A program made the position numbers and the translations under genes. 64,000 bases of DNA. Origin: an uncultured Planctomycetales bacterium. Lineage in GTDB: Bacteria; Omnitrophota; Gorgyraeia; Gygaellales; Profunditerraquicolaceae. The DNA lies in the NCBI GenBank assembly GCA_964413025.1, contig CAYPRG010000001.1:464-64463 (forward strand), written 5' to 3'. Position 1 is the stretch's first letter. Each line of letters opens with the position of its first letter. The notes under the pieces are model-generated. The model saw only the letters and a list, made by a program, of their open reading frames with translations. It searched no databases and was not told the origin of the DNA. Below are positions 1-64,000 of this stretch, piece after piece.

Positions 1-1180
1 CTCTATTTCCTTGACCGGGCCCTTCCATAATTCCCTTACTATATAATAGCCCTTCCTGGGGACGCGTTTATTAAGCCCGTTTTCTAATTCTTCAGATAGC
101 GTCACAATACCAAACCACTCCTCGTTCATATTTTTATTACCCTTTGCCAGGATATCATGGTAGTAGTTGCCATTGGACCAGTTTGATTCGGTATTATGCC
201 GCTTCCATCCTTCTGCGTTATTATCCACCTGCATAGATTCGTTATATTTCCACCACTCATCCGTCCATTCAAACATTATGCCGCCTAAACAATTACCCAC
301 GCCCTCTTTATTGCCGGCTAAATTCTCATAAATCTGGCGCCACTGCCATTCCAAAAAGTATGCCTGCATGTTCTGGTCTTCTTTATTTAAGTAGGCATCA
401 TAAGCGTCCGCGCCGAATTCCGCCACTATAAGAGGCTTATTAAAATCTGTCTTTAGGGATTTGAATAAATTTCCGAAAGTCTTACCACGATAAATCATAC
501 AGGCAATTAAATCAATATCTTTCGCAACAGAAGAGGCGATGTTTAAATATGTGAGTTCACAATTACCCAAAGCCACCGGATGGCTGGGGTCTATTTTATG
601 GATCTCTTTAGCCAGTTCATTGACAAAAGAATAATAGGCTTTAGCGCGCATCTCTATTTGTTTTGAGGGATTTGGCTCTTTGTCTATTTCGCTGTTGCAC
701 CAGGGCCTGAGCTGGCCGGAGAATGTACGGTTATTTTCATTACCCAGGATCCACATCAGGATTCCCGGCTCATCTTTGTAAAGATTAACCATTGCTAAAA
801 CTTCTTTTTTTACTTTTCCCTGGAAAGCTTTATCGTCATAACTGGGACAGGGCCCTTCCCACAATCCCACCCAGTTACCCAAGACAGTGCGGATACCAAA
901 AAGCTCGTAGAAGTCTTTGATTACCTGCTTTACTGCCTGGGGATTTTCCCCGGGGTTATAAATCCTTATTGTGTTTATCCCCATTTCTTTCATTAATTTA
1001 CCATCGACAAGCCAGGGTTTAGCCGGGTCAAGCCACCAGTCATATTCATGGTTCTGGCCTATAGGCACGGGGCTGTAACAAACACCCTTTACGATATATG
1101 GTCTACGCTCAACCATCAACTCGTAACGGCTGTCTTTGAACTTTTTGATATAGACATTTGACTTGGGTATGGAAGCCATA
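1..1180 (-). other. Clan GH-A (TIM-barrel) glycoside hydrolase-like domain, at the C-terminal end of the in-window part of ORF A.
   Basis: Translated ...DEPGILMWILGNENN... (acid/base-type motif, about +730-750) and ...KPLIVAEFGADAYDAYL... (nucleophile-type xEFG, about +400-440). Also ...MFEWTDEWWKYNE... Confidence 0.55.
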
Positions 1181-4100: not shown

Positions 4101-7100
4101 CCTTGCCGGGTTCTGTTTTAAGGAAACGCTTTACCGCTTTGGTAAAGCTCTTTTGTTTCTTTATCTTCTCCCAATGATAGAGGACCTTCTCTCTGCTGTA
4201 GTGAGCTAAAAACATCACCCTCTGGAAAACTAGTTGCCGTTTTTCCTCTGAAGCGCGCTTCTTCCTTAAAAGCACCCGAATGTGCCACTTAAATGTTTCA
4301 CCCTGAGCGGGAAATACAAAACCAGCCTTACAGCCGCTCTTGAACAGGCTGGGGTTATCCCGCATTACTGCGGAAACGGTAATACTGTGCCATTTGAATC
4401 TTTTTGCCCAAGCCTCGACTACATCTTCCCGGGTGGAATAGTCAATGTGTCTATCGATTTTTGCTATTCCGAAATCAATAAAACCGAAACGCCGCACTGC
4501 GGCGCTGTAAAGGGCAACGTTTTCTTGCTGTAATTTCCAATAAGTATTTTCTTTACCGCTATTGTGCCTCTCTGCCAGCGCACGCTTGACCATGCTAGGG
4601 GCGTGATATTGGAAAGAAGCCCTGCTAAGAGGCCTTAGAGCGGCCAATTCCAATTCATCCTTATTATCAGTTAATTGATATGCCTGAGATAACCTCTCAA
4701 CTTCCTGCAATAAGAATTGTGTTCTTTTTTGATACGAGGCAAGAGACTTAAACGCTTCTTGGTTACTAATCAGGTAATTTTTTAATTCTCCGGATGCTTT
4801 TTTAGCATTTTCGTCTCTAATAACCGCGGTACGCACCAACTCCATCCAATTTACTAAATGTTTGACCGTGCCGCCATTCTGCGCGTTTAAACGGAAATTC
4901 TTATACACCTGCCAGGCCTTCTTCATCCTGGATTGCAATGAAGCCTGAGAATTTTCGTTTTCCCATTTCTTATATTCTTCAACCGCTTTATCTAATCGCG
5001 ATGGCGAAAGCGGCTTTTCCATCTTTATCCCGAAAACAGCATATAAGGCCCAGTAAAGAGCGGGGTTTTTCTTGTTTAAGATACTCGGCTTATCTACCCC
5101 TTCCTTGGCTAAAGCCATCCTGGCGGTTCCTGGAGTGGGATATTTCGGGAATACGGTACTCATCGGCCGCAAGACGGCAAATTCTAACTTATCCTTTTCT
5201 CCCTCCCCGTCCCCGTATTTCAAATCATATGCGCCGGAGATTCTTTCGGTTTCCTGCATCAGGAATCTTATTCTTCCAATATAAGACATAGACTCAAACT
5301 GTTTTTGATTCTCTAAAAGATAAAGCCTGGTTTCTCTTATCGCCCTCTTCGTATTCAGGTTCTTTATAAGAAGAATATTGACCATATCCATCCAAGTCGC
5401 CCATTGATTGGCCAAGCCGCCGTTTTGATGTCTAAGACGGTTGCTTCTATATAACTCCCATAATTTCTTTATCTTTATTATTAAAGCCGCGCCGGCATTC
5501 TTCTCTTCCCAGTTTTTATAGGCAACTAATATTTTCCTGAACGCCAAAGATTCACCACCGCATAAATCAATATCCAATAACCAGGCAGCCCTGTTCAAAA
5601 CCGCATCTTCGCGCATTCCGGCTTTAATAAATTCTTCTATTGTCACTCCCGGAGTAAGATACCTGGAGAACCTTCCATAAAGAGGGCGAAAAGTAGCAAT
5701 CTCTAATTTATCTTTTTCTCCTTCTTTATTGCTGTATTTTAATCCGTATTTCTGGGATAACTCTCCAGTCTTACTGATTAAAAATATTATCTTATTCTTG
5801 TAAGACAACCTCATGAAGTAGCCGCTGTTCAACCCCAGAAGCAGGATCATCCTTTGCGCGGCTTTCCTGGTCGCAGGTTCAGAGATGAGTGTCTTGTTGA
5901 TTAAGGCCGTCCAAATCACCCATTCATAAATAGGAGTATGGTAGCCATTCAGTTTATTAATTAAATAGAGCTCATAAACTTTTTTTGCTTTTTCCAATAA
6001 AGGCAATTCTCTATTATCCTTCTCCCAAGATTCATATTGAGCCACTGCCCTATTAAAAGCCTCCGAGGGTTCAAAATTTTTGTTCAGTAAGAATATTTTA
6101 TTTGCTGCCCTGCAGAGGCGGACCGTAAAATAAGCGCCGAAATATCCGGCGCTAATCTTATCGCTATCAGCCAATCGCTGCATCGCCCTCCATAAGGCTT
6201 TACCGAATCTACTGTCTAATCCCTTCTTCTGGGCTACGGCTTTAATGTGCCGGGCAACTGCCGGAGTGAACTCCTTATCGGACATAATCAAAGTCAACGC
6301 CCTGGCCAATCTTGCCAGAGGCAGGCGATTGGACTTTTCGGCTAAGATATCCACGGCTTCCCGCAAGGCATCTTCTACGTTAAACGCTTTGTTAATAAAG
6401 GCATTACCAACGGATTTGTTCTTTGAGCCATAAATCTCCAGCATCCTTCTTGCCCTCTTGATTGCTTTTGCCTCTATCTGCCTGATCCTTTCCCTGGTCA
6501 AACAGAGCAATTCTCCTGTTTCTTCAAGAGTCTTCGTCTGGTTAGCATCACCGCCTAATCCGTAACGCAAGGCTAATACAACCCGCTCATCGTTCTCTAA
6601 CTTTAAAAGCACGCCGCCTATATTTTCTTTTATTATAGCCTGACAGGCTTTCTTTTCGGGAGAGGCGAATGTGTTTTGTTCGATGAAACTTCCCCGGCTA
6701 TCTTCGCTTTCCTGGCTGACCGGAGCATCCAATGATATAGGGTCGCGGATTGCAAGGAGTTTCTTGATTATTTTTCCGGGTAGCTTCATTATCCTGGCCA
6801 GCTCTTCAAAGGTAGGCTCTCTCCCATGTTCCTGAACGAACTTCTGAGAAATCTTTTCTAATTTAAACTTCTTCTCCAACATAAACACCGGTACTCGTAT
6901 TGTATGGGCTTTTTCCGATAATGCCCGGGTAATTGCCTGGCGTATCCACCAAGCAGCATAGGTGGAAAATTTATTACCTCTCTTATGATCAAATTTTTCA
7001 ATAGCCGGAAACAAACCCAGTCTTCCATAGGCAAACAGGTCTTCGAATGCCATAAAACGGCCAAGGTATTTTTTAGCCTTATTGCCCACTAATCCCTGAT

Positions 7101-10100
7101 TACACACTACAAGGCAATCGGTAATGGTTTTTATTTCTTCGGGGGCCTTTGTAGAACGCAAAGCCATAAATAATTCAAATTCTTCTTCTCTGCTTAAAAT
7201 ATAGCGGCCATTCATATAAATAAGATTGGCCAGTATCCTCCTGGCTAAACTTAAGCCGTCTTCCCGGATATTCTCTAAAAGGTTTGTTGCTAAATATTCT
7301 GCTTCTTTTACATCTTCTCTACCGCCTATAAAATGCTTTTCTTCGTGCTCAAACAGCTTTATTAAAAGGTTTTCTTGGTTTAATTGGGTAAATCTGGTTA
7401 TTAGATTTAAGGGAATAAAAATCGTGGAATTATAGGTGCAGGCGGCTAAAAATCTTTCATTATTCTCATACCAAAGTAAACCCGGAGGGCCCTTTGATTT
7501 AACATCTGAATCGGGAAGGACTAGATAAATATTATCTTTACTCAACCACTTCAATATCTGCGGAGTAAGGACTAGCTGTGCTTTCTTATCCTGCGGTAAA
7601 TCCTTATAGCGGAAAAGGCGGTTCTCTTTCCGGGCTTTAGAGATGACTTTCTTTGTTCTCTTCTGAGCTTTCTCATCCACCGCGCCCTCTTCGGTGTAAA
7701 TGCCTGAGCCACAGGCAGAAACAGAATCAGCCAGATAGTCATCTAACCTTAACGTTCCGATTAAAGAATGCCACTTGCCCATCGCGTATTTTACGCAACC
7801 GCTCTTTAGGATATCTTTACCTGTGGGATTATCCTGATAAATCTCACCAGCAAAGAAAGGCTTTTTGATTATGGAAGAGGTATCTTTGAAACATTCGACA
7901 ATCAATTCAAAACAGTAGAAATCTATACGATGCTGCAGGAGGTTATGGGCAAAGGCAACCCTACCCAGACCTGTCAGCCTGAATAAACTGCGCCATAGCA
8001 CACCCCAGCCAAATCCAACTATAGCTGGCCAGTCATATTTGCGGCCTATCAGATTTTCTGCGCGGCTACAAGCTGTCTGCATAGCATCCTTATATTCATC
8101 TGCATCCTTAAATGCCTCCTGCTTAAGACGCACCACCGTTAAGCTGGAATTTTTATTTTCTAAATAACCGATTTGTTTTAAATATTCGGCTAATCTTTGT
8201 TTAATCACGCCTCTACCCAAAGCATGGACAATCCATCTCTTGCCTATATTTAGAACTCCATGGTTAACCGGGCTCTGGGTTGAGATCCTGATTAAATTGC
8301 TAAAGCTAAAGAATCCGTCGCTCTTAAATAAAGAAATATCTCCTTTGTTCAGTTTTAAAGCAATATAAGCAACTTTTATTTCCTTAAGCAGCCTCAAAAC
8401 ATTTTGCACATGGCCATAGTTTATCTTGCCAATCTTTTTCTCCTTTATCTCTCTCAACTTCAAAATAAGCTCAAGTAATCTATCTTCTAAAACATCGCCG
8501 GGCTTCCTGTCTGAAAACCCAATCACAATAGCCTTGATTTGCTGCCTTAATACTTTAGCTGAGGCACCTTGTAACCCTCGGGAGAGATGATTGAAAAGAA
8601 AATCCACATCGCCCTGCTCAATCCGTCTCTTAACCTGTTCTATATTCGCCATACCGCCTTCTTTAAAGGGCACGGAGAGCTTAATATTATTCTGCCCAAG
8701 ACGAAATAAACCATATCCCCAGGCGGGGAGTGTAACTACCATTTTTTCTTGGTCGATAACAAACTGAACATCCTCCGAACAAAGTTTCGACGTAAGTTCG
8801 CCGTTTATTTTCTCAGGGACGTTCGGCTCTCCTTTATAATAATTAAAAATACTGTTAAAATTAAGGCTAAGGCGCACCGGATAAAGCGAATGATTGACAA
8901 GAACTACGGCGTCTTCCTTATCCAAGTGCCGCACAAAAGGCACAACCCCGGTATCTTCTATGCCGACTTCTTTTCCACAAAAATCTATTTTTTCTAAGAA
9001 AGCGCTAAAGAATCTTCCTTTACGAAAAACAGGATGGGACACGAATTTAATCAACTCAACAAGCGGCTTAACCACCATAGAATTGTCTTTTAAAACATCC
9101 GGGTATGAAAACTGATATATGCCCGCGTCTGGATTCTTCATCTCCATACGCGCTCCCTCAGGGATTCTCATGCCGAGAATCTGACGTAGAGGAATAAGTT
9201 TATGCCCGGGGATGGCATAGGTAACCACCGCCGCGCCCATAAGGCGCTCCATAGAGCCGAAAGCGTCTATTGCCGGAGGCTCATCGTGATCCTCAATAAA
9301 ATGAGTGCAGTGCCTTAAAAATTCTTCCTTATGCTCACCCATAAATAAATATCCCCTCAAAGATGCAATATTCCCTTCTCTAAGTAAATCATAAAGGTGC
9401 TTATCATAAGGAAGCATTCCGCATTTCTGCAGCGTATCATGCGTTCCGTAATCGTAAGTTTCGGCAGGCATCAGCATTTTCGGATACTCTCTGCGGGCTT
9501 CCTCCCAGAATTCATTAGGCATCGTTTTCTGGAACTCTTCCCAGCTTACGCCCAAAGGAGCAATCCAGGTCTTCCAAACATGCTCCCTTAACCCCAAATG
9601 TGCCAAGTCCGCCCTGAATCCACCGTTACAAGTTAGATAGGCGATTTTTCTCATAACTTTTTTTATCATAAATCTACGGGCTCTCTCATCAAAATAATTT
9701 ACCTGAGCAAGATTTATCATAGACGGATCTTGCTCAAAGGGAGCGTTTTCCCGGGCGTGCATAAAGATAAGATCGGATCCGTTATGCCGCGAGAATGAAC
9801 GGCGATCACCTTCCATAAAAACTTTTAACTGCTCATCGCAAAGCCCTCGTGACCAATTAGGAAAATATTTTCGCACTAACTGAACAAACCGATTGTAATC
9901 TCCGCTGATCACCAGGCCGGGGGCTTTCTTAAGCAACGGCGAATCAGCGGCGATATGGTTAGTCACAAAATCAACAATCACCCTCATGCCCTTGGATTTC
10001 AAATTTTTGGCTACTGCCCGGAAATTACCATCATTGCCGGCAATCTTCGGATTTATGCGGTATCTATATACATCGTAACCGGAAGGTATTCTTTCCAGGG

Positions 10101-13100
10101 TCTCATTGTGTTGCTTGCTCCAATTTTGCATGAGTTTTTCTGAAAGCTTGCTCTCCTGCCATACCGCTTTCATCCATACAACACCGATACCCAACTCAGA
10201 AAGCCATTTCCAGAATCCCGCGGGCACCTTATTTATAATCCCGTAAGTGTCGCTTAAAGCGCGACCGTCAATTTCGGTGATTATCTGCGTAGATTCATCA
10301 GCCGGCCTGCGTAATTCACTGCTCAGGATAGTTATGGTAGATATTCTTTTCAGCTCGCGGATATAATTTTCATCAATCTCCACGATATCTTTTAATTCCT
10401 CGACGCCGGAAAGGAATACTTCTAATTCTTTTCTGTGGTCTCTATAATAAATATAAGCCTTGTGGCAAGCGCGCTTATGCGCTTCTTCTGGGGTGCAATG
10501 CAATTCTTCTAACTCTACTGATTCATGGAGTTTAAGATCGGGGAGTATTTTTTGCAGGCGGGGATCTTTAAGCAGCCGATGGATAACAAATACCAGAATA
10601 TCTTCAAATCTTTTGATTTCAAAAAGTTTTCCATTGCTGTCGCCAATAAGCTCAAACCGGGTTTTTACCCGCGGAGGGGCATGGACTAAAATACCTTCCA
10701 GCAACTTAGATATTGCCGGATCCGGCTCTTCTTTTTCCGAAAGCACCTCTGGTTTTTTGATTTCTTTTTTCGCTTTGCCATAGTAACTGCGGAGGCTAAG
10801 AGAGATGTTTCGCCCAGAATCAAAAACCGCCTCTTCTTTATCTATCCCGACATAAATAGGGTGGTATACTTTCGTGTGGAACGGTATCTGTTTCCTCATC
10901 TTATATTCTAACAATTCATCCCTTGTTGCCGAACTTGCGTCTTTGCGGAATATCTCCCACACACACTCGTGAGCATATTCTTCAAGCTCGCCGTTTTTGG
11001 TATTAAATATAAAACTCCTGGGAAGCGTACCCTGATATCGCGAATCATGAAGCAAAGTTTCTTTTATAAAGTCATCCTCTAAATTAAAATTATCGGTCAG
11101 CCATATATGTATAACTTCTTCTTTACCGGGCTTGGTTTTTATTGCCGCGAACATCTCATATATCAAGGTAAAAAGGTCAAAATTATTATTAATGTGGGCA
11201 GCCGCCGCCTCTTTGGTGGCAGGATTGTACATCAATATGCCTCTGCAGGTAGCAATACCGTAACTGGCTAATTTATAATTCTCATCATAAGCATTAGTCA
11301 CCGCCCATTCTCCCTCAATCGCTACCGCGGTATTATCAAAAGGCCTGATCTCTACGTCAAATTCCCTGCGGTCGACCCCGGGATATACCCAGAAAGTGCA
11401 AGCGTACCCCCAAGGAAGACAGTCTGTTTTTCTCCTCCAAAAAATATTTGTGCTATTGAGAAGGTCAGCTATCTTCTCTGTTAACCTGCTGGAAAAATCT
11501 TCTTCTTTTACAAGAAGCCATATCCTGTTCTTGTCCTTCCGGACGACCTCTAACCCGTTCGACGCCGCCAATGTTGGTAAAATAAACTGCCATTCTTTTT
11601 CTGAAACAGACATCTCAATATTTGCTTTTAATTCTGATCTGCCTTTCTTGATGGTTAATAAGCTGCCTATCATTAACCCGGCGGGAAATAAGGTAGGCGA
11701 GTGATTATAGAACAAGACAACCGCGGCCAAGAAAGCTAAGCATAAAAAGATAATCAAGGGGGAGAATGCCTGGCCGGAACGGTTGCCCAATGAAGCGCTC
11801 CTACGCACCAGAGCCTGTTCCATATTCTGCCTTATTTGCGGTTCGATCTTCGCATAGTCAAGGAAAGAGAAATCCGGTTGCCTGTCTTTCAAGTAAAGGC
11901 CGTGTATCTTCGAAGAATCTACCGCCGTCTGGATCATTGCTTCTGATATATAATCCGGGTCGTCTTTATATTCAAAAAGCTCAATTCCGACTTCAGCAAG
12001 GCGCCTTTTGATTTCTTCTTTTGGTACGGCCCTTAATCCTCCCTGATGGTTTATGCAGATATTCATTACGAATTGCGTATTCTTGACAAAATATTCAAAG
12101 AGAGCGCGCTTACCTAAGATTTCCTGCGGCCGGCGGGCTATCCATAAAGCCGCGGTCCTTAATGTTTTTAAACGCAGATAAACGCTACTGATACTACGCT
12201 CCATTATCTCTCCACAATTCATGCGGTATAATTCAACAGAGCCATAGAGCACCTTGCATCTATCGATATCCCTGTCGCATACAGTATTAAAACGGGATAT
12301 CCGCGGGAATATATACGCGGGTATAACATTTAAGGCCACTTCCTTTCCTTCTCTGCCCTGCACAAAAACCCTGCCATCTTTAAATGTTAAAGCCACCCCC
12401 TTCAATACTTTATATGCCGCATCTAAATCTTTTACTACCACCCAATTATCGAAGTCCGCGAATTCATTCTTCTCGCGGGCTGCCGAACCGTATAAGACCA
12501 CTGCTTTTAAATTATCCCCCAATCTTCGCTTAAGCCAATTTATATACCCATAACGCTCCTGTTCCCCCTGGGTAAGACAGGCATTCACAACGTATGTCTC
12601 TTCAGAAACGCAAGCCATAGGCAGAAGCTCAAGATACTTGATCATCCTCTTTTTTATCTCAATGAGCAGGCTCGTAGGATCATCCCTTGAGAAACGATAA
12701 GGCATAAAGGAGGCGTTTTCTCTACGTAAGAGCCCCAGAGCGATAAGCATCGCGGTTATTCTGTTATACACGTATATTTTATTGAGGAAGGTTTTATATA
12801 CGCCCCTGTTCTGGACAATATAGGAATCCATAGTGGCGATCCTCTGCGAGATCTCGGTCTGCAGCTGCAGTATTGCGCGCAATATTTTTTTTCTATAAAA
12901 TATGCCGTTGATGCCGGTCAGCGCGGATAATTTTTCTCTTCCAATATTCTGTTGAAGCTTATTTACTACTGAAGGTAAATATACCGCGAAGTTCCTGATT
13001 TCATCCACAGTCCAGGGTAACGGCAGGGTATCTTCCGGGGTTGTCTTAAGAAGGCCCTTTAGATATGAAGCGGTGGGAGAACCTTTTATAATAATCGTCC

Positions 13101-20559: not shown

Positions 20560-20562
20560 CCT
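20560..20562 (-). other. The single in-frame TAG stop codon separating the two giant open frames.
   Basis: + strand 'cta' at 20560-20562, read in the coding frame as ...[71 protein letters not shown]... Confidence 0.85.
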
Positions 20563-50500: not shown

Positions 50501-53500
50501 CCGGCTTCTTTGCCCAACCAAGATAACATCCCGCCAAAATCTGTCCCCTGCTGTATTAGCCAGGAGGTAAATACATTGTGATTAGAAAGCAATACCGTGC
50601 GATGGCGAATCCGAGGATCTTGACGTATTAAGTTCTCCGTTCTTTCAAGCTGTATATCGGAAAACTTGCTAAACTTTCTTCCGCCGGTAAAAATCGTAGC
50701 CAACGCCTTAACTATACGATCCCTAAAATTAGGGTCGCAAAGGATATCCACTATTAAATCGGCGCATTTATAATCAACCATCCGGCGCACAAAAGTAAAG
50801 AATGGCGATTCCATAAATCTTGCCTTGAGTTTTTTGCTATCATTTTCCCATTCCTTCTTAAGCTCCGCGTTAATTCCCCCAAAGGTCCCTTTAAATAACT
50901 CATCAACAAACCTCTGCTTCTGTTCTTTCTTTACGGTCAGTAGATCTTGAATAAAATCCTGCTTGAATTTGGGATTCTTTTCCAATTCAATAAAGAATTT
51001 AACGTAATTTCCGTCAACAATGCCAACTCCGGATTTATTCATCTTAGAGAAGTATTTTTTTACAAGTTCTTGAATTTTTAACCCTTGCCACCGTTCAATA
51101 TCAGAACCTTCGCTATTCCCGAATAAATCATCCTCTGCTACTTTATCAGCAAAGTCATAGAATATTTCTTCCCGTAATATTTTTGTGTGCTTGGTAGAAC
51201 ATCCTGTAATAACATCGCTTACCATCCCGGTTATCTTGACTAAATCTATTTTACCATCATAGATTGCCGAACGAAATTCTTCAGCTATTTTCAAGATATC
51301 AAACAAATAACTATTATAATAAGGCATACCGGCAGGCACAATTGTATGGTTATAATGATGCACCTTAAGATCTTTGAATGCCGGGTCATTTTTATATCCA
51401 TCCTGCCTTACGGCGGGGATGACTAAGGTGGTATTGATTTCACTGGTAGAGAAAATTAATTTCGGGCTTATGCTGCCGACCTCTACCCCCTCTTTAACAA
51501 ACCTCAATGCGACTTCGCGGTAGAGTAAAGTCTGCACAGCGCGAAAATCATCATAGCTTTCTCCGCAATAAGCTTCATGAAAAACCTGCGGGCAATAAAG
51601 CCAGTATTCTTTTAACTCAGAATAAGGATTCGCATAAATCTCAACATCCACTTCCCCTATCAAATTCATATTAATGGCTATCCCCTTATAGGTTTTAACC
51701 TTTACCAATAAATTACGGACTAAGTCAATGATGTTCTCTTTTTCTATGGTTCCGCGAGGTTCTAAAGCGCCCTGGCCTTTTATGGCCCTGGAATACAATA
51801 CGCCAAAAACATGAAGATGATTTCTTGCTTCAAGATTCCCCTGATATTGTTCCAATACCTGAAACCAACCCCTCACTAAATCAGGCTTAAAACTACCTAA
51901 GCCTCCAGCCATAAGAATCTTTGCCACTTCTCCTGTGTTATAAACCGCATCTTCCCATGAACATCCTTTCATCTTTACCAAATAATCACAGAACTCTTGC
52001 AAGAACTTCATTGATAACTCATATTCCATCTGCAGAACAAATATATCATACCCTTTCAGAGATTCGACTGACACACCTAAAGAAACTTTCTTAAATTCTT
52101 CCGCCCATTCTTTATCTACAGAATATCCTTCAGTATCTTCCTGCCTATCCTGCGCCTTAATGATAAGGGAAACTTTACGCTTTAAATTAGTGTCGCGTAA
52201 AATAACATCAATTACAGCTTGGCTGCCCCGTATTCTGTAGAGTTCGTTTAATTCTGTTAACTTTCTGGCAAATCGCTGACCCTGAAAATCCTGGTGAACT
52301 ATGAATATTCCGCCTTTTGCAATGAACTTTCTGCTCTTTCCTGCTTTAGCCTTATATAATACTCCTTTATCGGCTATACAATTGTTTGTCTCCAGGCCTA
52401 TTATTCTTCTAACAGAATCAAGGAGTTCGGGGCGGCTTTTTAATAATTTAAAGTTTATTTTCTGGACAGCCGGTTCGGGTAATTCGCGGACTAAGTGGAT
52501 AGATTCGTGGTCAAATACTACTTCTAATGTATTAAGGAGATCTTGCAGGTATTCGGGAGTATTTAAGCCCGGATTCTCAGGCGGCCCGCGGTCTAACCGC
52601 CAGTGCAAACCAATTTGTTTGGCTTTAGCATAACCTAATTCACCTTCTCTTCCGTAAAATTCCAGGGTGAATTCAATTTCTTTATTTTCGCCAATCCATT
52701 TCGCGAAGGCTTGTTTATCTTCTTTTTGCCTGCGTGCAAACGCATCGGTAATAATCCTGAGCAATGCTTCTTTTGTCTTTTCGCTTACTGGAGCAGGAAC
52801 GCCTTCAGGAAAACTAACCTGGATATTATCCTGCGCCTCTTGAGTAACTTTGACCTTAAATGTGACAGCGGGGACATCTATGGCTTCGGCGGTAGCGGGG
52901 AAATATGGATTGTAGCCATCCCAGTATGTCCAAGAAAGCCCAGAATTATACCTCTTTTTTCCTTCTAATTCGGCGGCATCTTTTTTAGCTTTCAACTCTG
53001 CAATTATAATACTTAGTTTTTCCAGCGCCTCACCAGCCTTAGTCTTAATTTCTAAATCGTCCCCATTTTCTATTAATGCTTGTAAGACAGGGATAGCAAC
53101 AGGACCAATTTTAATTAACACTTCTTCGGTAGCGCTATGGATATCTGACTCGGCATTTTCTAATGTTTTTATCAAGGCAAGTACGACGAATATGGTTTCT
53201 TTAGAAGCAACAGGTCCAATCTCACCTAATGCTTTGATGGCAGAGTAACGGCGATGCGGATCTCTTAATGCAAGGGTTAGGACCGGTATAGCTTCTTTTG
53301 CAGCCTGACCAATCTTGCCCAATGCTCCAGCAGCGGTGTAATAGACATCCCAGTCATCATCTCCGAATGCCTTAATAAGAGAAGGAACAGCAGCGCTGCC
53401 TATCTTAGCTAATGCTTCTTCAGCGCCATCTCTTTTTGCTAATCTCTTGATATGCCACTTAATCAAAAAATATTTACGCCAGACCGCAATAAACAAACTA

Positions 53501-56500
53501 GCGATTATAATGATTGTACTAATAACGATTATGCTAAGAATAATATTGTTAATAACTTCATCTTTTAAATTCTGAAATACCGTTACCCTGAGCCACTTCG
53601 CCACCAATATCATCAAAATGGCACTACCCATAACCTTACTAACTCCTTTATATAGTGAATATATTATTACCTTACGTATAATAGAAACTAATCTTGCAAC
53701 AAAAAAACCAACCAAAATCGGACCTATAACCAGAACTATAAATGACGCAATCCCCCAGAAAATCATCGAAAGGAAAGATATATCGTTACTTCCTTGCTCC
53801 AAGGGGCCGCTTTTGCCAGCGCAACCATTTAAGAACATCATTGAGCCTAAAAAAAGAAAAGCTAAAATAATTTTATTAGAATTGTCAGAAGCAAAGTTTT
53901 TAACTTCCGGGGATTTAATTACTGTGTTTTCGATGCCACGGATGTAGCCAAACTTATCTCCAGTCGTAATAAGCTTTACTTGTCTTACTCCTATTTGCCC
54001 GATCTCTACTTCGCGTAATCCTTTAATCTTCTCGTGTAGCTGTTTAAATTCTTCCGGAGTAATCTTGTTTACAATTCTTCCCAGGCTAATATGCACTAAT
54101 GGCGTATAGTGCTTATTATCTGAAAATTCTTTATATAATTTTTCTCTCAATTCAAATATCTTCTCGTCATCAACATGCCCCTGGACGAATATTGCTCCAT
54201 CAAAACCTAAATTTATGCCCTCGAATCTTATTTTGATTGGACCAACACTAGCCATAATCTTTTCTATTGTTTCGGCTATCTTCCCATTAACCTGGAACAT
54301 ATTATTGCAGTCGTTGATTAAGCTCGAAAACAAGCTGGTATGCAATAAATCACTAGGGATTAATTCTAATGCAGGGTAGACTTTCTGAATTTCTTTTCCG
54401 ATAAACGACAATTTATTAATTAATTTCTCACCTAAACCAGCACGATCTACACTTAGAGCTATTGATTGCAGTGCGGAATTTTGTAATGGCTTAGGTGTTT
54501 TGCCTTGTGCTACCATTTCGCCAGTCGCCTGCCAAATACTTCCATAAGCCTCTTCTAAACTGGTTTTATCTTTAATTAAAAGGGATTTTCTCGGTTTTTC
54601 ATCAGCTTCGTGGTTATTTTCTTTTTCAGCAATAACTGAAGAAGATTTGTCGGAAACGTTTGCTCTGGTTTGTCTTTTCCAAGAAGGAAGAGCAAAGCGG
54701 GTGATATCTTCTCCTATATATTCTCCGTGGCTACAATCGGATGGAGAAAATAGACAATCACTTACAGAATCATCCCATTCAAACCAATTACAGTCATGCG
54801 GAATCATTGGAGCAATTGGGTATTGACTTTCAGAAGCTTCTTTCTTATGCTTAGCTACTAACATTTTTTCAGTATCTTTGTCATAGGCAGGGCATTTATA
54901 TAGTTTACGACTTACTACTTCAACATTTTGTCCTACTAAAGCGATTTCATCCTTAAGTTCTTGCTCTAATTGTTCAATGGAATTCGAACGTTCAAGCATT
55001 TCGGGCAAGGCATTTCTTAATTCACTATCTTCCAATTTCTTACCTCTGGCTTCCTTAAACCATAGCGAAATAAGCCTAGCCACCCCTAAGGATTTTTCTA
55101 ATCTTTCTGGCGTAATATTGAACTTTATTACTATCTTTTTCAAATCTCTCAATAATTCTTCTCCATCATTCCTTCTCTCTAAAACACTTGCAAATTCTTC
55201 TAAACAGCAGATATTTGTTTCATATTCTATTAAATTCTTTGATATTCCAAGAGAAATGGGAACCCCGATTTTAAGAATAAAATCAGGGTTTATATCTTTG
55301 CCAATCAGCCTAACCCCCATATTTATCGTAATCTCAAGCCACTTAGATTCGCTTTTTGTTTCTAATAATTCGACTAAATCTACAATATACCCAAAATACA
55401 TTGATTTTTTTTCTAATTTATCTAGTAATAATTTAATGGAAGGATATTTTATCAAAACTAATCTTAATTTTATTTCCCTATTTTTTGAATGGTTCATTGA
55501 TAGGGTGTTTAAAAGGAATTGCAATAATTTTCTGTTCGAAAGTTCTGCCTCCGGAATTCCATACCTACACAGAGATAAAGCTATTTCTACCCTGACATCC
55601 AAATTCGGGCTCTCCGAAGCTTTAAGATAACCTCCCAATATTTGTTCTCTAGTTGCACCTAGTTTAGCTAACGACTCTGCAGCTTCCCACACTCCACAAC
55701 CTAGTGCTATAACGAGAGCCTCAATGGCTCTTTTATCATTAATTTCTCCCAAAAATTTTGCTGCATAATTACAAACATTTATATGAGGGTCGCGCAATTT
55801 TATCAAAAGCACACTAAACAACTGTTCTTTAGCTTCTAACGACGTCAGTGCTTCAAAACAGCTTCTTGCTACTTCGTAACACTGAGTTTCATTTAACGCA
55901 GAAAGTAGCTCCGGGATAGCTCGCTTATCTTTCGAGCGTCCCAAGAAAGTAACGGCCATACGAACAACTCTGTAATTACTATCATTTAGCGCCTCAATAT
56001 TTGAATCTACGCTGAAACCTGCAGGGTTAGAACATCCAACGCATTCCAATGTTTTACTAAAATTAATATAATTCACATAACCTAATTCTACTGTTTCATA
56101 AGAATGGGGTTTGGCTTCGTCATCTGACAATCCCCAATATTCTTTTTCATCAGCACTTATTATCGCATCCTTCCTAAACACCCTCCATTTATATCCTCCC
56201 CCTAAACATGACTGCACATATCTTACAACTCTATACTGGTCAGCTTTTTTGGTTTCTTTTAATGTTTTTTTCTCTATAACTATCTTATTAAAGATTTCAT
56301 TCAAGAACCTCCTAGTTGCGGATATTGGCATATCTTTATCCATACTTATGCTAAGAATTATCTTAGTAAATTCTAACATGGCGCTTATAGGAGCATCTTT
56401 ACTTGACCATATTAATTGCTTACCGTTTGAATTCATCCATTCAATCCATTTATGGGTTCCGATTTCTAAAATTTCTATATTCCTCTTGTAATATTCAACA

Positions 56501-59500
56501 TCACCTTTTGCGTATTGCCACGCAAGGGGAAGCCCTTCCTGGAGACAATTGCAAATCGGAAAACCTGAATTTGATAGCTTTACCCCTAATTGTAAACCGA
56601 AAATAAATGCTTCCTTTTGTTTAACGTCCTCTAGGTCAAAACTTTTCAGTAAAGAAGGAATTAATACTTTTGCGCTAAATTCCAACGGCAGATTATTCTT
56701 TTTTAGAGAAGATAAATATTCATTGATTACTTCACGAGCCGCGAGTTTCCTTATATGATATTTCCTTTCTAACCTCCCTATATACCAGCTTATTGGAAAT
56801 ACATACCGCCAGATAATAAGGAATAGACCAATACCAACCGGGATTGCTATAGAGGTAACAAGCGAAAATCCTAAAATAGAAGCCTTAGCCATTGAGAAAG
56901 CAGAAGTCGTTACATCTAAAGTATTACCATTTGTGCCACATCCACTCAATCCCACCAGCGCACCAAGAGAAACAAATAATATAATTGACCAGCATGGACC
57001 CCAATAATCCTGACGGTCACTGCGCCCTTCGCCAGGATAAGTTAAATCTTCCGGTTTCGCAAACTCGCTATCATTGAGATGAGAATTGAGTCTTCTTTTC
57101 TCCAGCATTTCTTGAATGGCGTAATATAATAATTGCCCGAAAAATATAAGAACAGAAACTAACAAGGCCCAGCCGGCTATAGCGTTACTATAATTATTTA
57201 ACCAAGATAATATCGAAGTAGTTTCATTCGAGTATCCAGTCTTTGCACATCCTACTAACCCCATTAACGCGCCTGTAAATAACAGGAATAAAAAAATCCT
57301 GCTAGAAGATTTAATACCACCGGAATCAGACTGCCGTAGATAATATATGTATCTCCAACCGAGACTTCCATCCTCGTATGGCCTTGGTAATTGAGAGCGC
57401 TCTATATGAGCTATTGCAGGTATATTGCCTTTCAAACTGTCATAAAAGTTTACAGCGGGATTATTTTGTTTTACATCTAAGACTATTTTGTCAGTATTTG
57501 AGTTTAAAACATATCTGATTAGTGCTTTCGCCAGTTCTGTGGCAATGCCTTCCCGGCGATGGCTTGGCGATACGGCCATCTGGTTGATGTAAATCGGGCA
57601 TCCTTCTTCAGGTCCAAAAATTAAATATCCAGTGATTTCTTTGCCATCGTAGTACACTAAGGTAGAATGGCCGGCTGCTTTGATTTTGTTGGAAACTAAG
57701 GATGGCGTGACGAAAGGCTTATCAGAAGTTTCCGCTATTGCATTGTTGAGCATTGAAATCTGATTTAACACATAGTTATTGATTTGCGTATTATCAAGCA
57801 AGAAGATAGATTCACTAATCTGCCTACCTTCAAATTTCTTTTCCTCCTCGTCCTCTCTCCTTTCAGTTTCTTGAGCAGGAATTACTGAAGCAGTTTCTGC
57901 GGAGACAGGCTTCTGAGCCTGTTGTTCCGGAAGTTTTATCTGGAAGGCAATTACTTTGCCATTTAGATTTGTATAAGCAAGCTGAACAAAAACGCAGTTA
58001 TTAAGAGAGATACTATTAGGGTTAATTTCTAAATGAATACTGGCAAATCTAATAGAAATGATATCTTTTTCTTTGAGAGGAATTAAATTGCCTTGTTTAT
58101 CCTGAATTTTAATTGTAATCTTGCCTGTCTTAATCCAATCCTTGAGGATATTTTCTGCGGTTTGAAGATTTTGCTTTACTATTCCGGGGAGTTCTGTATC
58201 TACAACCAACTCTATGGATGTATCTTTTTGCTCGACTTTAAGCGGAGGAGCCTGGGCATCACGTAAAGCCGCATCAAGGATTTCATTCAATTTTGATTCT
58301 ATCTCTGCTTCTATCTGAACAACGGGCTGATTGATTGTCTTTGAAGAATTTCTTTTAACGCGTAGTTTAATTTTTAAATTATCAAAACGAGGGCGACCAT
58401 CTTTTTGAACAGAATATTTACCATCTTCAATTATAACCTCAATATTATCCTGAATGCCGTTTGAACGCACATCTTTTGACTCTATTCTTTCGCCATTTTT
58501 GTCAAAATAACGGTTAAGAATATCATTCAGGTTGACCGGCTCGGAAACCAAATTGTTAATTTTAATATCTCCCATGAATACAGGGCCGTGGGAATTCCTA
58601 GTGAATAACACTTCTTTTGCGCCTTTAATGACTAACGACTTAAGGTTCATTATGGAAAACTTCCCAAATGCCTTCTGGCAATTGGTTAAATCATCGTAGT
58701 AAGGAATACCTCTAAACTCAATATAAGGAGGATATTTTGAAGAATCAATGTTTTCCAGCATCCAAGTTTCTTGGTTAACCCTGTAGAAGTCGCTGTCTGC
58801 CTGCAGTAAATAATCGAAAATCAATTTAATAGGAGTAAAGAACTTGGTGCGATCGGCAGGCGCATCAAGATTGACGAGACGTAACAATTTGTCTACTCCG
58901 TAGCGCTTGAGGATTTCTTTTGCCTTGTCATTCTTTTCGCAGAAATTATGCAAGTTAATAAAGCAGGAGCCGATAGGGCCTTCAATCTGAATATATTTCT
59001 CGCCGTCAGGCCCTGGCTTAAGGCCGGATATTAAATCTGAAGCATATATCTCTTGTAAATTTGCTAACTCCCCTCCAAAAACCTCTTTAACTATATCTTT
59101 TAAAATCTTACCTATGAGATCTTGATCCAAGAGAGCAATATTGGTATTAAAGTATTGTTTCCCTGCCTGGCCATAGCCTTCTTTGATGCTATTCTTTTCA
59201 AAAATGTCAGTCTGATTGTTAATTACGGCTGCGGCGCGCTCCTGCATACCTAAATACTCATAAACAATAGTGCCGTCAGGAAGGATTTTAATCTTATAAC
59301 CAAATTGCCCGCCTTTTATATCGGCTGGGATTTTGGTAGAAGTTATCATAATAATAGGAACATTATTCTTAATCATCCATTCTATGGTGTAATCGTCGGG
59401 AAAGTTATTAGTTCCGTCTCCGTTAAAGAAGGCGCGGATTGTCTTAAGATTGTTATCGAACTCTTTCCCGTCTTCTCTCTTTAGAAAAATATTCACCATT

Positions 59501-62500
59501 TCAGTTAAAAGCTTAGAGCCCCATTCGCCGTGACTTAAGTTTCCCTCTCTTTTTTTAGTAGGAATTCTTGTTTCCGGGTCAACAGAAGGATAAGGTTTAA
59601 CTATATACCAGTTCTTAATTATTCCCAATTCTTCCATAACTTTTTCATAAGTGCGTGCCGCCTCGCTGCGCTTACCCAACAGCCTATCCCGTACATCTTC
59701 AAAATATTCTGTTTCAAATAAATTGTCGTAAGTAGGTTTAGAAGCAGTGTCGCCTACACTGACTATCGGGTCAAAAGATATTATGCCTTTAAATCCTTTT
59801 GCTCTCTTGCCCCTTGTTTCTTTTATAAGACGCAATAATTTAATTTCTGCGATAGGAAGTATTTTATATCTTTCATTCTCCGGGACAGTTTCTCCTAAAT
59901 CAATCTTGAAATAAAGGTCCCCGCCCTTAGAACGCAATTCAGTCCTTCTAAATATCTGCCAAACCATCTTTTTTCTGCGCAGGCTTGTGCCTAATCCTGC
60001 GTCTAAACAGAGAAGGTGGATATTATATTCAGGAATACCTGTAACTTTGGAGATTTCTCTTCTGTATTCATCGATTTCTTTTACCAAATCCTGATAATTA
60101 ATAACGCCAAATAACTCCTTTCTCTTTTCGTCACTAAACATTTCTGAAGCAGAAAATAAAAAGTTCTTATTTATTATTAAAGCGGGCAGGTTAGGAAGAG
60201 GTCTGAGGTATTTCATAAACAAGGCCCGGAAACAGGCCTTGCTTGATTCATCCAGCTTTTCACTGCCCGTCCCCTCAATCATCAAAGCCTCTTCGATCTC
60301 TTCCGGGCTTGGCCTTTTTGCAATAGTAACTTTGGCATTCTTCAAGCATAGCTGCTCCCTTTCGTCTTCATAGAATTCCCCGTTTTCAACTGGGCGGGCC
60401 ATTTCTTCAGGTAAAGGCCTAGAGAAATAAAACTTCTCTCTGGTTCTATTTTCTATTGTAACACTACCCTCTACTATGCCCTTAAGTTCAACCGCGTTAC
60501 CGATAAATCTCAAAAAAGACTTATCAGTTATGTCTGTCCTCCTGGATATCCCACCGACAGTTAACTCCACGGATTTGCAATTTTCCGGCTTTAATCCCCC
60601 GACCGGGAATTTATCGGATTTAATTTTAGCCGGGTCGATTTCAAGATGAATAGTGTCGAATTCAATGGCAACCTGATCCTTGGGAACATCTATCCAGGCT
60701 CCTTTGCTATCCTGCAGGCGAATCTTAATCATTTCATCATCCAGCTCTTCCGCCGGATTAATGTATTCCGGCATTCCATTCATTATGGCATTGAATAAAA
60801 TCTTGGTTACTACCGGTTCTTTTACTTCTTCATTTCCTAACTGACGCTTAAAAGTGCTTACCTTTAGCTTAAGCTTAGCCTGATCAGAGATCTTAATTAC
60901 TTTAGGAGAAGCTTTTCCTCTGGTAAACTCTACGGCTTCATACTTCCTGTCCCCGGGCACTTTCTGAGGAATAGCCTTAATTTCCATATTCATATTAGGA
61001 TAAGCAACAGAGACAGCTTCAGAAGCAAATGGCACATCTACCCAATTTTCATTATCGCCATCTTTGACTAAAATTCTGAACCGGACACTCTTATCGCGTT
61101 TGATTATTTTTTGAATATTATCTTTCTGCCTGAAATCTTCCTTAATAATCACATCTATTGTGCCATCTTGATATTTAAATTTCATTTTTGACTGGACAGG
61201 AGTAACCGGCTCAAGGTCATTTATAATATCGTAAATAGCTCTCCGCTTCATATCTTTAAACCAATAAAGTAAACTTACTGCCAAGTGTACTTTCCAAGGC
61301 AGGACTGTATAAACTTCATCTGTTACCACTTCATCAAAAGCATCGCCCTTTTTCCTTGCTGATTCTAGCTTACTCACTACTACAGGATGTACGAGAAGAT
61401 TCTTTAAATCATACCCGAATAGTTTAATCAAAAGCCAATATGTAAACGGCCTTAAGATAAACATAAGCGTAATGGCCAACAGAGGAACTGATTCTTTAAG
61501 GCCTTTCCATAAATCTATACCTTTTAAATTCCCTTTGCGGTCCCGGAATAAACCATAGGCACGCATACCGCTTAAGAACGAAAGAGATGCTAAAAGATAT
61601 AATATAATGGCTGCGGCACCTAATTTCGTCAGGAAGAAAAGCCCGACTAAGAACCCAAATATAGCCGCCATAGAAGCGATACCATTAAATGGCATACCTT
61701 TAGAAAAACCTACAGAATACACCATCATAGTATTCGCATAATAGTTAGGCCTATTAAACCCTCCGATTACAGTTTTCTTAATCGTTGAAATAAAAGCGAA
61801 TATGGAATTAGAGGCATACATAATACCCTTAAAGAACAGTGCCAATAGAGGAACATAGAATGGGAAGGCTATAATAATATCCCTCAAAGTCAGAACAGAA
61901 GCTCCCCAGAAACTGGCAGATTGCCTCCAATGTCTTATAAAGTTATTGGCATTGATTGCTTCCATGAAGAAGAAGCTTATGGCGATAAAGAATACTGCTG
62001 GAGTCAAGAAAGCAAACGAGCTAAACGGAGAGAGTAACGGCAACACCGCTAAGAGAACAAGAGCAAATGCTGATATGAAATAATGAAACCATAAGAATAA
62101 ATGTGACAATTTCTTATCAACGGGTAAATCCTTGTTAAAGAATAGCGCAAATTGGTTTCTATCCATCATGAACCGGGTTACATTATAAGCGTAGCGCAAC
62201 TCTGTATTCGCCAGAGAGGAATCTAACAAGGTCGGACGGCCCCAATCCATCATGAACCAGTCTATCTGGGTAGATTCCATCAACGGCTGCTTGTTTTGTA
62301 TGACTAAGAATGAACCGGAATCTTCTCCGGGAGGGGTAAAGAGTATCGCCGCGACTTCCGGACGGCAGCATCCTTTACCGTAAAAGGTCAAGGCACCTCT
62401 ACGCGCTCTCTGCGTATCTCCTGTCCAGGTTTCCTGGGCGATAGCATAGATTTCTGGCACAGGGAACGCCCAATCTCCAGGGAAGAATGAATTCGCATTA

Positions 62501-64000: not shown

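Follow-up and report, generated by a model that had tools for sequence, protein, structure and literature searches.

A 64-kb stop-free stretch of an Omnitrophota genome is probably the 3' part of a giant gene for a mosaic of enzymes

One open reading frame fills the window

The DNA analysed here (hereafter, the window) comprises 64,000 nucleotides of contig CAYPRG010000001.1 (assembly GCA_964413025.1, positions 464 to 64,463), deposited as an uncultured Planctomycetales bacterium and placed by GTDB in the Omnitrophota. A single open reading frame (ORF) occupies its minus strand from edge to edge. A six-frame stop count over the whole window found no TAA, TAG or TGA in the 21,333 codons (63,999 nt) of minus-strand frame 1, compared with 720-1949 stops in each of the remaining five frames. 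With a stop rate of 6.6% per codon expected from base composition, the probability of such a run is about 1e-632. Residues are numbered so that amino acid i occupies window positions 63999-3(i-1) down to 63997-3(i-1), the low coordinate being congruent to 1 modulo 3.

1..63999, minus strand: stop-free reading frame of 21,333 codons, open at both edges (stop count and coding signature)

The coding signature was uniform along this frame. In each of 22 bins (1,000 codons, 3 kb), GC content was highest at codon position 1 (~0.48), lower at position 3 (~0.42) and lowest at position 2 (~0.35), and the purine fraction at position 1 stayed between 0.59 and 0.68 (about 0.64). GC skew was negative along the entire window. 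The biggest ORFs outside the giant frame were 150-217 amino acids (aa) long, and the window contained no tRNAs, Rfam families or tandem DNA repeats. A self-BLAST of the window protein gave just ten weak internal pairs; it is therefore not a repeat protein. We also rejected genetic-code reassignment, because the frame holds no in-frame TAA, TAG or TGA to be read through. At 63,999 nt without interruption, the frame far exceeds the 20 kb by which Omnitrophota giant ORFs are recognised. The gene length given here is a lower bound (at least 21,333 aa), with the N-terminus lying beyond the window. Exact 40- and 50-mers taken from the two window ends had no match in the genome and metagenome contig collections searched.

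An earlier note on this DNA had proposed that the window lies inside a single giant coding sequence on the minus strand and is not a set of ordinary genes, and the absence of stops and the uniform coding signature bear this out. The frame that it named (codons at plus-strand positions congruent to 1 modulo 3) is the stop-free one when translated. Its account of the other frames also holds: their stop density is ordinary, no ORF in them exceeds 217 aa, and the plus-strand ORFs are antisense noise. The codon-position periodicity check that it suggested gave, within the window, the expected signature in 22 of 22 bins. By contrast, the single in-frame TAG that it reported does not exist in the sequence, so its lower bound of 14.5k codons is replaced by 21,333.

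The frame encodes a non-repetitive mosaic of modules

We searched overlapping chunks of the frame against Pfam, NCBIfam and PDB sequences. The window protein proved to be a non-repetitive mosaic of whole enzymes, unlabelled linkers, four or more HEAT blocks and ~35 hydrophobic helices. About 35 distinct Pfam families tile the chain, with HEAT and GNAT alone recurring, and the enzymes belong chiefly to storage-glucan, trehalose and sugar-phosphate metabolism. Recognisable modules cover ~36% of residues. In order along the protein, the modules are as follows.

aa 1528-1802, minus strand: weak UDPGP-like stretch, upstream of GNAT
57430..57729, minus strand (aa 2091-2190): GNAT acetyltransferase; Pfam E 2e-12, R-x-x-G-x-A motif
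55702-56076, minus strand (aa 2642-2766): HEAT block; Pfam HEAT_2
52990..53442, minus strand (aa 3520-3670): HEAT block; Pfam HEAT_2, AlphaRep matches in the PDB search
50020..52362, minus strand (aa 3880-4660): GT35 (glycogen phosphorylase)-like module of ~780 aa; homologs at 50-62% identity (13 proteins, 43 loci), AlphaFold2 with Foldseek, profile-to-PDB alignment
46762..48264, minus strand (aa 5246-5746): GT20 trehalose-6-phosphate-synthase-like module; Pfam E 1e-70, PDB OtsA E 1e-34, NCBIfam
46441-46614, minus strand (aa 5796-5853): NUDIX, directly after GT20
44587..45657, minus strand (aa 6115-6471): phosphofructokinase (PFK) of the pyrophosphate (PPi)-dependent type; Pfam E 4e-47, best PDB match PPi-PFK E 2e-29, GGDDT motif
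between PFK and GH161 in the listed order, minus strand: second GNAT; Pfam, NCBIfam and PDB-sequence scans
38527..41706, minus strand (aa 7432-8491): GH161 beta-1,3-glucan phosphorylase, full length; PDB 9qqk_A residues 4-1036 of 1046, E 3e-245, 820 bits
37372..37599, minus strand (aa 8801-8876): possible caspase/CHAT-like His...Cys dyad; weak Pfam DUF4347 match, E 8e-4, read by eye
33445-34152, minus strand (aa 9950-10185): HEAT block; Pfam HEAT_2
33001..33456, minus strand: HExxH module with HELFH at aa 10280; motif kept in relatives L012 and L023
32299-32688, minus strand (aa 10438-10567): first copy of a "connector", 130 aa, immediately before GGDEF
31777..32316, minus strand (aa 10562-10741): GGDEF diguanylate cyclase; Pfam E 9e-47, GGEEF active site, RxxD I-site
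aa 10822-10870, minus strand: MraZ/AbrB-like piece, just upstream of the YHELISH module
30910..31386, minus strand (aa 10872-11030): recurrent YHELISH module of ~150 aa with a predicted mini-zincin-like fold; invariant TVFxHP...ILYHELISH...E
30175-30639, minus strand (aa 11121-11275): second copy of the connector, 155 aa, immediately before PGM
28696..30177, minus strand (aa 11275-11768): phosphoglucomutase/phosphomannomutase (PGM), four domains; Pfam PGM_PMM I-IV, PDB E 1e-32, DGDADR and GEESA motifs
25675-26511, minus strand (aa 12497-12775): HEAT block; Pfam HEAT_2
aa 13380-13489, minus strand: DUF4912, preceding GH57
21799..23421, minus strand (aa 13527-14067): GH57 branching-enzyme/amylase, full length; PDB 2b5d residues 5-523 of 528, E 9e-130, Pfam GH57 and BE_C
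19336..20397, minus strand (aa 14535-14888): MalK/UgpC sugar ABC-transporter ATPase, full length; PDB E 1e-115, residues 18-369 of 370
18100-18414, minus strand (aa 15196-15300): DUF218, just upstream of the patatin/DHH block
14206..17514, minus strand: patatin-like lipase (aa 15496-15679; GGGVKG, GTSAG and DGG motifs) and DHH/DHHA2 phosphoesterase (aa 16152-16598; DHH motif); Pfam
8704..10791, minus strand (aa 17737-18432): alpha-amylase-like module; Pfam Alpha-amylase E 5e-8, 70% identical to relative L109 (tblastn)
7255..7716, minus strand: HExxH module with HEEKH at aa 18885, ~40-60 aa upstream of the sigma module
6445..7167, minus strand (aa 18945-19185): complete RpoD/SigA-like sigma-70 factor, regions 1.2-4.2; PDB SigA E 1e-56, NCBIfam RpoD 246 bits
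1..1236, minus strand: terminal module; signal-anchor helix (aa 20922-20944), then GH2_C-like TIM-barrel glycosidase (aa 20946-21333); Pfam GH2_C E 4e-5, cut by the window edge

Family scans also recognised a methyltransferase, listed after DHH/DHHA2. For the major modules, the matches to solved homologs in the PDB-sequence search begin at residues 1-20 of those homologs. Catalytic motifs were intact wherever we checked: the MalK module (NCBIfam UgpC subfamily score 439.7 bits, cut-off 432) has its Walker A, LSGGE, Walker B and H-loop motifs, and the sigma module carries the canonical KFSTYAAWWIRQAITRAL and TRERIRQIEAKAI motifs of regions 2.4 and 4.2.

Several families were absent from the 21,333 aa. 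Pfam and NCBIfam scans gave no SecA family at E <= 0.01 and no families of nonribosomal peptide synthetases (condensation, adenylation, carrier) or polyketide synthases (ketosynthase, acyltransferase, acyl carrier protein). There were no Pfam matches to dockerin or TSP3 in the window, which sets the protein apart from dockerin-type or tandem-repeat scaffolds. The first 1,400 residues (window 59800-63999, minus strand) had no family match, and a word-indexed search of 5.8 billion proteins returned no homolog for them, a negative that reflects the method. Four hydrophobic helices lie in this segment.

Relatives include giant ORFs and indicate the probable end of the gene

A protein search with aa 4400-6800 returned 13 matches, all of them "partial" proteins of 1,438-3,479 aa that fill their contigs in metagenome-assembled genomes (MAGs) of Candidatus Omnitrophota or Omnitrophica. 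All 13 share the GT35-like module over 740-780 aa (aa 3880-4660) at 49-59% identity (BLAST). An alignment of this module recovered 43 loci from species-representative genomes, mostly Omnitrophota MAGs, with a few labelled Planctomycetales or Altiarchaeales. The window is assigned to the Omnitrophota through these nearest relatives, at 45-62% identity: 13 out of 13 proteins and most of the 43 loci are of that origin. The matching frame was stop-free over the whole fetched locus, up to 21 kb, in 31 out of 43. By tblastn, the modules shared with these loci were the GT35-like module (33-62% identity), PFK (43-57%, common to L023, L026 and L041), GGDEF and several unannotated pieces, and their neighbours and order varied from locus to locus. 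The GT35-like module stands alone, as an ORF of 660-1,200 aa, in 8-9 loci.

A search of Joint Genome Institute (JGI) metagenomes gave 357 relatives (64-76% identity) of the final 400 aa of the window, and 80 of these were fetched (loci L045-L124). In 76 of the 80, the relative is encoded by a separate gene of ~450 aa whose product carries an N-terminal hydrophobic anchor of its own. On this comparison, the last module of the giant ORF is a whole gene, signal anchor included, that has been fused in frame. All 78 relatives that reach a stop end 3-23 aa (median 10) past the equivalent of window position 1, so the window ORF should stop a few dozen bases (~10-25 codons) to the left of position 1, and this is almost certainly where the giant ORF ends. 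The ORF had been described as running off both edges; it is indeed open at both, but at the left edge the homologs place the stop only this short distance away. The stand-alone version of the terminal module was found in a conserved small operon with a ~800-aa paralog, which also has TPR repeats, and a ~400-aa gene.

One metagenome relative, L109, is collinear with the window and shares the last ~3,600 aa of its architecture. Its giant ORF is open upstream (at least 3,720 aa) and carries, in the same order, the amylase-like module, an HExxH module, the sigma module, the terminal glycosidase (74% identical) and a stop 19 aa past the window-equivalent end. The HExxH-sigma pair (L109 7895-9424) is conserved at the same position, with the sigma module 50% identical over 515 aa. 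Between sigma and the last module, the window has ~1,640 residues more than L109; the sigma module accordingly lies ~2,150 aa from the C-terminal end in the window and ~600 aa from it in L109. On the 3' side of the L109 giant gene (L109 11289-19756) lie genes for PilZ, a solute-binding protein and two binding-protein-dependent permeases, followed by glycosidase paralogs; no ABC ATPase gene was present in the 10 kb visible downstream. PilZ and solute-binding/permease genes stand immediately downstream in L044 as well. The window ORF has an intact MalK/UgpC ATPase embedded in it, whereas the importer beside the L109 giant gene has no ATPase gene within that visible stretch.

Because modules are reordered among relatives and two of them stand alone elsewhere, the gene must have grown by in-frame capture and shuffling of whole genes.

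An embedded sigma factor follows a protease-like motif

Sigma modules are not confined to the window and L109. The 3,581-aa Omnitrophota protein MBF0486236.1 (L044 1-10747), which is the C-terminal end of a giant ORF followed by PilZ genes, contained four sigma-like modules in an exhaustive search. Some sigma factors are held at the membrane or by a pro-sequence and are freed by proteolysis, as in pro-sigma-K/SpoIVFB and in the regulated intramembrane proteolysis (RIP) cascades that act on anti-sigma factors. The zincin-sigma pair resembles a pro-sigma arrangement by analogy only. As in those systems, a whole sigma-70 module lies in what would be a membrane-anchored precursor, beside a putative metalloprotease motif. 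Unlike in them, the sigma factor is RpoD-like (group 1/2) and not of the extracytoplasmic function or sporulation type, and it is internal to a chain of more than 21,000 aa.

The window contains four canonical HExxH motifs (aa 3831, 9557, 10280 and 18885), compared with 0.45 expected. Across 175 thousand residues of giant ORFs there were 21, compared with 4.8 expected from composition (~4-fold), whereas most scrambled control motifs gave 3-7. Two of the window sites could be followed into relatives. The family at aa 10280 reads HELFH in the window and in L012 and HELYH in L023; that at aa 18885 reads HEEKH in the window, HEKKH in L109 and HENNH in L025, where the module occurs alone. In both, H, E and H are kept and the x positions vary.

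A fifth site, HExxxH, belongs to the YHELISH module, whose invariant core is TVFxHP, 12 residues, ILYHELISH and a downstream E. L026 carries seven copies within 7,069 aa, and L003, L010 and L040 have further ones; those of L004 are degenerate and lack the motif. An AlphaFold model built on a four-sequence alignment had a predicted local distance difference test score (pLDDT) of 85 and a predicted TM-score of 0.82, with two of five models confident, and the predicted fold is closest to minigluzincin zymogens. The known minigluzincin zymogens (proabylysin, projannalysin and selecase) and the Wss1/SprT mini-zincins have HExxH, whereas the window module has HExxxH; it is also embedded repeatedly in a giant chain and not stand-alone, and is known by its predicted fold, without a sequence-level Pfam match. 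Pfam gave no match at E <= 10 for the YHELISH module or for the other HExxH sites. A word-indexed homolog search with the 171-aa zincin-like module returned nothing despite relatives in the fetched loci, so this negative reflects the method.

Four of the five HExxH/HExxxH sites lie just upstream of another module: the GT35-like module, the connector plus GGDEF, the connector plus PGM, and sigma. We considered whether all five form a single family; jackhmmer, hmmsearch --max and hhalign found nothing significant (probability < 10%). The fold evidence applies to the YHELISH family, and the other HExxH sites rest on motif, context and conservation. We therefore regard the zincin-like modules, as candidates for cleavage in cis, as a lead and not as a result. 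The segment FILAHGS...(about 45 aa)...LNSCSTG at window 37372-37599 resembles a caspase/CHAT dyad and may be a second protease module.

Hydrophobic helices and the side of the membrane

Helices were taken from a Kyte-Doolittle hydropathy scan and hairpins were chosen by hand. The scan gave 28 hydrophobic segments at a threshold of >= 1.8 and 41 at >= 1.5, mostly clustered.

61426..62079, minus strand (aa 641-858): cluster of ~4 hydrophobic helices inside the homolog-free 1,400 aa (Kyte-Doolittle)
56809..57297, minus strand (aa 2235-2397): two transmembrane (TM) hairpins, the first helix of each ending in a lipobox-like L-x-G-C
53488..53871, minus strand (aa 3377-3504): cluster of 3-4 TM helices, the first ending in a lipobox-like FLNGC
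aa 8627-8698, minus strand: TM cluster flanking the His...Cys dyad segment on one side
37039-37095, minus strand (aa 8969-8987): Sec-type signal-like helix ending AFA-AAS (AxA site), on the other flank of the dyad segment
34198..35094, minus strand (aa 9636-9934): cluster of ~5 hydrophobic helices (hydropathy scan)
aa 14447-14476, minus strand: hydrophobic anchor with a strongly positive C-flank, directly upstream of the MalK/UgpC module
aa 15089-15141 and 16626-16705, minus strand: TM hairpins enclosing the DUF218/patatin/DHH block (hydropathy scan)

Three internal helices (window 57241-57312, 56938-56994 and 53815-53874, minus strand) look like lipoprotein signals, with a positive N-flank, a hydrophobic core and an end in L-V-G-C, L-S-G-C or L-N-G-C. 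A second helix follows ~20 residues after each of them.

In the eight clear hairpins, Lys and Arg made up 15.9% of the 20-residue outer flanks and 3.9% of the inner loops (Fisher P 7e-5). By the positive-inside rule, this distribution leads us to read the eight helix pairs as hairpins with both ends in the cytoplasm. A strict parity count of the topology was ambiguous owing to single helices and weak hydrophobic stretches; for that reason we retained the charge-bias test on the clear hairpins alone.

The biochemistry of the modules bears on the same question. PFK depends on PPi, the OtsA-like GT20 on UDP-glucose, GGDEF on GTP, GNAT on acetyl-CoA and the methyltransferase on S-adenosylmethionine (SAM). 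A MalK-type ATPase operates only at the cytoplasmic face of its importer, and a sigma factor requires RNA polymerase. We infer that the nucleotide- and cofactor-dependent modules lie on the cytoplasmic face, which fits both the hairpin charge and these requirements. Some segments probably face outwards, for example the terminal glycosidase behind its signal anchor, like its stand-alone homologs.

Comparison with published giant genes

ORFs longer than 20 kb have been found in 77 out of 116 Velamenicoccia genomes (PMC10066038). West-Roberts et al. (2023, 10.1101/2023.11.21.568195) described proteins of up to 85,804 aa and defined the Archaeovorin class, whose type is a protein of 39,678 aa from Velamenicoccus archaeovorus LiM and whose content includes HEAT repeats, glycosyltransferases, methyltransferases, glycoside hydrolases, peptidases, NUDIX, GGDEF, PGM and glycolytic enzymes. 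A later catalogue of 5,761 proteins of at least 10,000 aa extends to 147,155 aa and includes a "multi-enzyme metabolic cluster" class (Nielsen & Lui 2026, 10.64898/2026.06.07.730766).

The window gene resembles the Archaeovorins in its Omnitrophota origin, its ORF of tens of kilobases, its many TM helices and its frequent HEAT repeats. It contains the domain set of that class: glycosyltransferases, glycoside hydrolases, a methyltransferase, peptidase-like modules, NUDIX, GGDEF, PGM and glycolytic-type enzymes. PilZ and binding-protein transporter genes directly downstream, as seen in the relative L109, are a neighbourhood that West-Roberts et al. also reported (10.1101/2023.11.21.568195). It differs in that its prominent transferases are GT35-like and GT20 and not GT5/GT1. 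No SecA_DEAD or SecA preprotein-binding domain, another trait of the class, was found in the 21,333 aa covered. The upstream part of the gene, with the N-terminus at which Archaeovorins carry a signal peptide and a C39 or S8 peptidase, lies beyond the window, and of the full length above 30,000 aa (>90 kb) that marks the class, at least 21,333 aa can be shown.

As in the multi-enzyme metabolic cluster class, the chain is covered by many distinct Pfam families without a dominant one; a module for sugar metabolism that includes PGM is accompanied by GNAT, methyltransferase, NUDIX and HEAT scaffolding; TM segments take up ~2-3% of residues; and the sequence is essentially unique while the type of architecture is shared. 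Neither main text mentions sigma, ABC ATPase or zincin modules (10.1101/2023.11.21.568195; 10.64898/2026.06.07.730766). The window has RpoD-like sigma, MalK-type ATPase and mini-zincin-like modules, together with GH161, which the Archaeovorin main text does not mention, and PFK and trehalose synthase, which the catalogue main text does not mention. For the longest protein with a signal peptide and TM segments, the catalogue authors favour outward-facing enzymes, whereas the charge pattern in the window favours cytoplasmic modules.

Because published Omnitrophota giant genes already show the same phenomenon, we do not propose a new category of gene. The earlier note was right to name metagenomic giant genes as the nearest precedents, since the closest relatives are Omnitrophota giant-ORF fragments. 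It had also called the enzyme-dense content very different from theirs, which does not stand, as the Archaeovorin and multi-enzyme metabolic cluster classes already describe such enzyme mosaics. Its description of genes of this size as extremely rare is apt across bacteria at large and needs qualifying for the Omnitrophota, where the counts given above make them common.

Interpretation

Taking these results together, we consider it likely, with good confidence, that the window holds the last ~21,350 codons of one real Omnitrophota giant gene of the Archaeovorin/multi-enzyme metabolic cluster type, and that its product is a single chain which, as the hairpins suggest, is stitched to the membrane. 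The gene would be translated as one chain and fastened to the cytoplasmic membrane by helical hairpins with both termini inside. Such a tethered assembly could link the uptake of sugars with their phosphorolysis, interconversion and storage, and would have one output in cyclic di-GMP through GGDEF (PilZ genes lie downstream in relatives) and another through the sigma factor. The MalK module may power an ATPase-less binding-protein importer of the kind encoded just downstream of the relative's giant gene. The small zincin-like HExxH/HExxxH modules upstream of enzymes and sigma might cut the chain.

Several points weigh against this reading. The gene is known here from the window, with its start, total length, neighbours and reads beyond view, and the protein and its translation are predicted from the gene sequence. 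About 64% of residues have no family assignment, and the structure models rest on shallow alignments. The topology comes from a Kyte-Doolittle scan and hand-picked hairpins, and single helices at aa 12843, 14457 and 17412 make the parity count inconsistent with an all-cytoplasmic model. The link between MalK and the importer derives from one relative's neighbourhood, with 10 kb visible. Published DeepTMHMM surveys assign the enzymes of certain giant proteins, among the longest, to the cell exterior (10.64898/2026.06.07.730766).

The nearest rival overlaps with this reading and differs in what happens to the chain, which would be only a precursor from which embedded proteases release the separate enzymes, MalK and the sigma factor. 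The candidate proteases are the mini-zincin-like HExxH/HExxxH modules and the caspase/CHAT-like dyad; an N-terminal C39/S8 protease, if present, lies beyond the window. The recurrence of the 150-aa module with its invariant H-E-x-x-x-H...E and its minigluzincin-zymogen-like predicted fold (seven copies in L026), the enrichment of HExxH with H, E and H kept in homologs, and the position of four of five window sites just upstream of an enzyme or sigma module all speak for self-processing. A sigma factor and a MalK dimer are also hard to picture working inside a tethered chain of more than 21,000 aa, and West-Roberts et al. raised cleavage of giant proteins as a question (10.1101/2023.11.21.568195). 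However, the HExxxH spacing is atypical for zincins, hidden Markov model and hhalign comparisons gave no statistical link among the five sites, the L004 copies lack the motif, and the cleavage sites and products are putative. The modules could equally act on other substrates. We judge self-processing to be rather unlikely. Its fullest form is more doubtful still: in a membrane-stitched polyprotein, recurrent mini-zincins would excise the enzymes and an RpoD-like pro-sigma, release of sigma would report that a message of more than 64 kb had been translated nearly to its end, and MalK would be the missing ATPase of the downstream importer. If that were true, a single gene would combine uptake, phosphorolysis, storage and regulation.

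Most of the chain might instead lie outside the cell as a coat or predation effector that digests or remodels the surface polysaccharide of prey, as proposed for Velamenicoccus archaeovorus and the Archaeovorins and in line with topology predictions for other giant proteins. The abundance of glycoside hydrolase and phosphorylase modules, the internal signal-peptide-like helices (one ending in an AxA site, two in lipobox-like sequences) and the terminal glycosidase behind a signal anchor, as in its stand-alone homologs, would suit this placement; PFK, GT20, GGDEF, MalK, GNAT, the methyltransferase and sigma would not, as they need PPi and fructose 6-phosphate, UDP-glucose and glucose 6-phosphate, GTP, ATP, acetyl-CoA, SAM and RNA polymerase. 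With MalK-type ATPases confined to the cytoplasmic face and the hairpin charge pointing to both ends inside, we find an extracellular chain improbable. The frame could also be a stop-less operon whose modules are made separately from internal promoters and starts, with no giant protein at all. Each major module is complete by alignment, with matches starting at residues 1-20, and some modules are separate genes elsewhere. Yet Shine-Dalgarno sequences with in-frame starts numbered 18, compared with 24.6 +/- 5.1 in synonymous-codon shuffles (host Shine-Dalgarno use may differ), no such site lay 40 codons or less from the 13 module starts, and ancestral start-codon positions are mostly not Met. 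Without selection on read-through, a run of 21,333 codons of which two-thirds are linker would not have stayed free of stops, and peptide evidence exists for the V. archaeovorus giant ORF (10.1101/2023.11.21.568195; PMC10066038). An operon of this kind is very unlikely. An assembly chimera, a sequencing artefact or a decaying pseudogene is least credible of all: the view is limited to the window sequence, without reads or contig, and no homolog was detected for the first 1,400 aa, but stops would accrue at ~6.6% per codon and there are none in 21,333, the catalytic motifs are intact, 31 independent assemblies are equally stop-free, and the architecture of the final ~3,600 aa recurs in a collinear relative.

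Transcription, translation, folding and membrane insertion are all tested at their limits by genes that run to tens of thousands of codons, and the central question for the Omnitrophota giants is whether they make one protein or many, and on which side of the membrane. The window offers modules that fix location and partners (the MalK-type ATPase, the RpoD-like sigma factor and the PPi-, GTP-, UDP-glucose-, SAM- and acetyl-CoA-dependent enzymes), as well as a small, recurrent and protease-like module absent from current family libraries. It also shows that whole genes, the signal-anchored glycosidase included, were first joined in frame and later reshuffled among relatives.

The GT35-like module and minor observations

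The GT35-like module is the most widely shared module among the Omnitrophota giant ORFs. An AlphaFold model of its C-terminal half had a pLDDT of 76, and the top 50 Foldseek matches were all glycogen/alpha-glucan phosphorylases (E ~1e-8, probability 1.0). In a profile-to-PDB alignment, the Lys of EASGTSNMK that binds pyridoxal phosphate (PLP) aligns to Asn in the window and in most relatives, whereas P0006 and P0012 retain it. The window copy is thus probably not a PLP-dependent phosphorylase.

Two unannotated pieces recur outside the window. The connector has a further copy before the GT35-like module in P0001/L003; as the window has just two copies and P0001 one, we did not retain it as a universal linker. 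A 530-aa stretch (window 41797-43395, minus strand, aa 6869-7401) with a weak P-loop kinase (uridine kinase-like) signal is 49% identical to L008 4-1587, an Omnitrophota giant-ORF fragment.

Stand-alone GT35-like copies of ~665 aa were found on contigs binned as Candidatus Altarchaeum/Altiarchaeales (L020, L036, L039 and L043), which may reflect mis-binning or transfer. In one Omnitrophota giant ORF, the GT35-like module is tandemly duplicated (L016 6371-8500 and 9071-11200).

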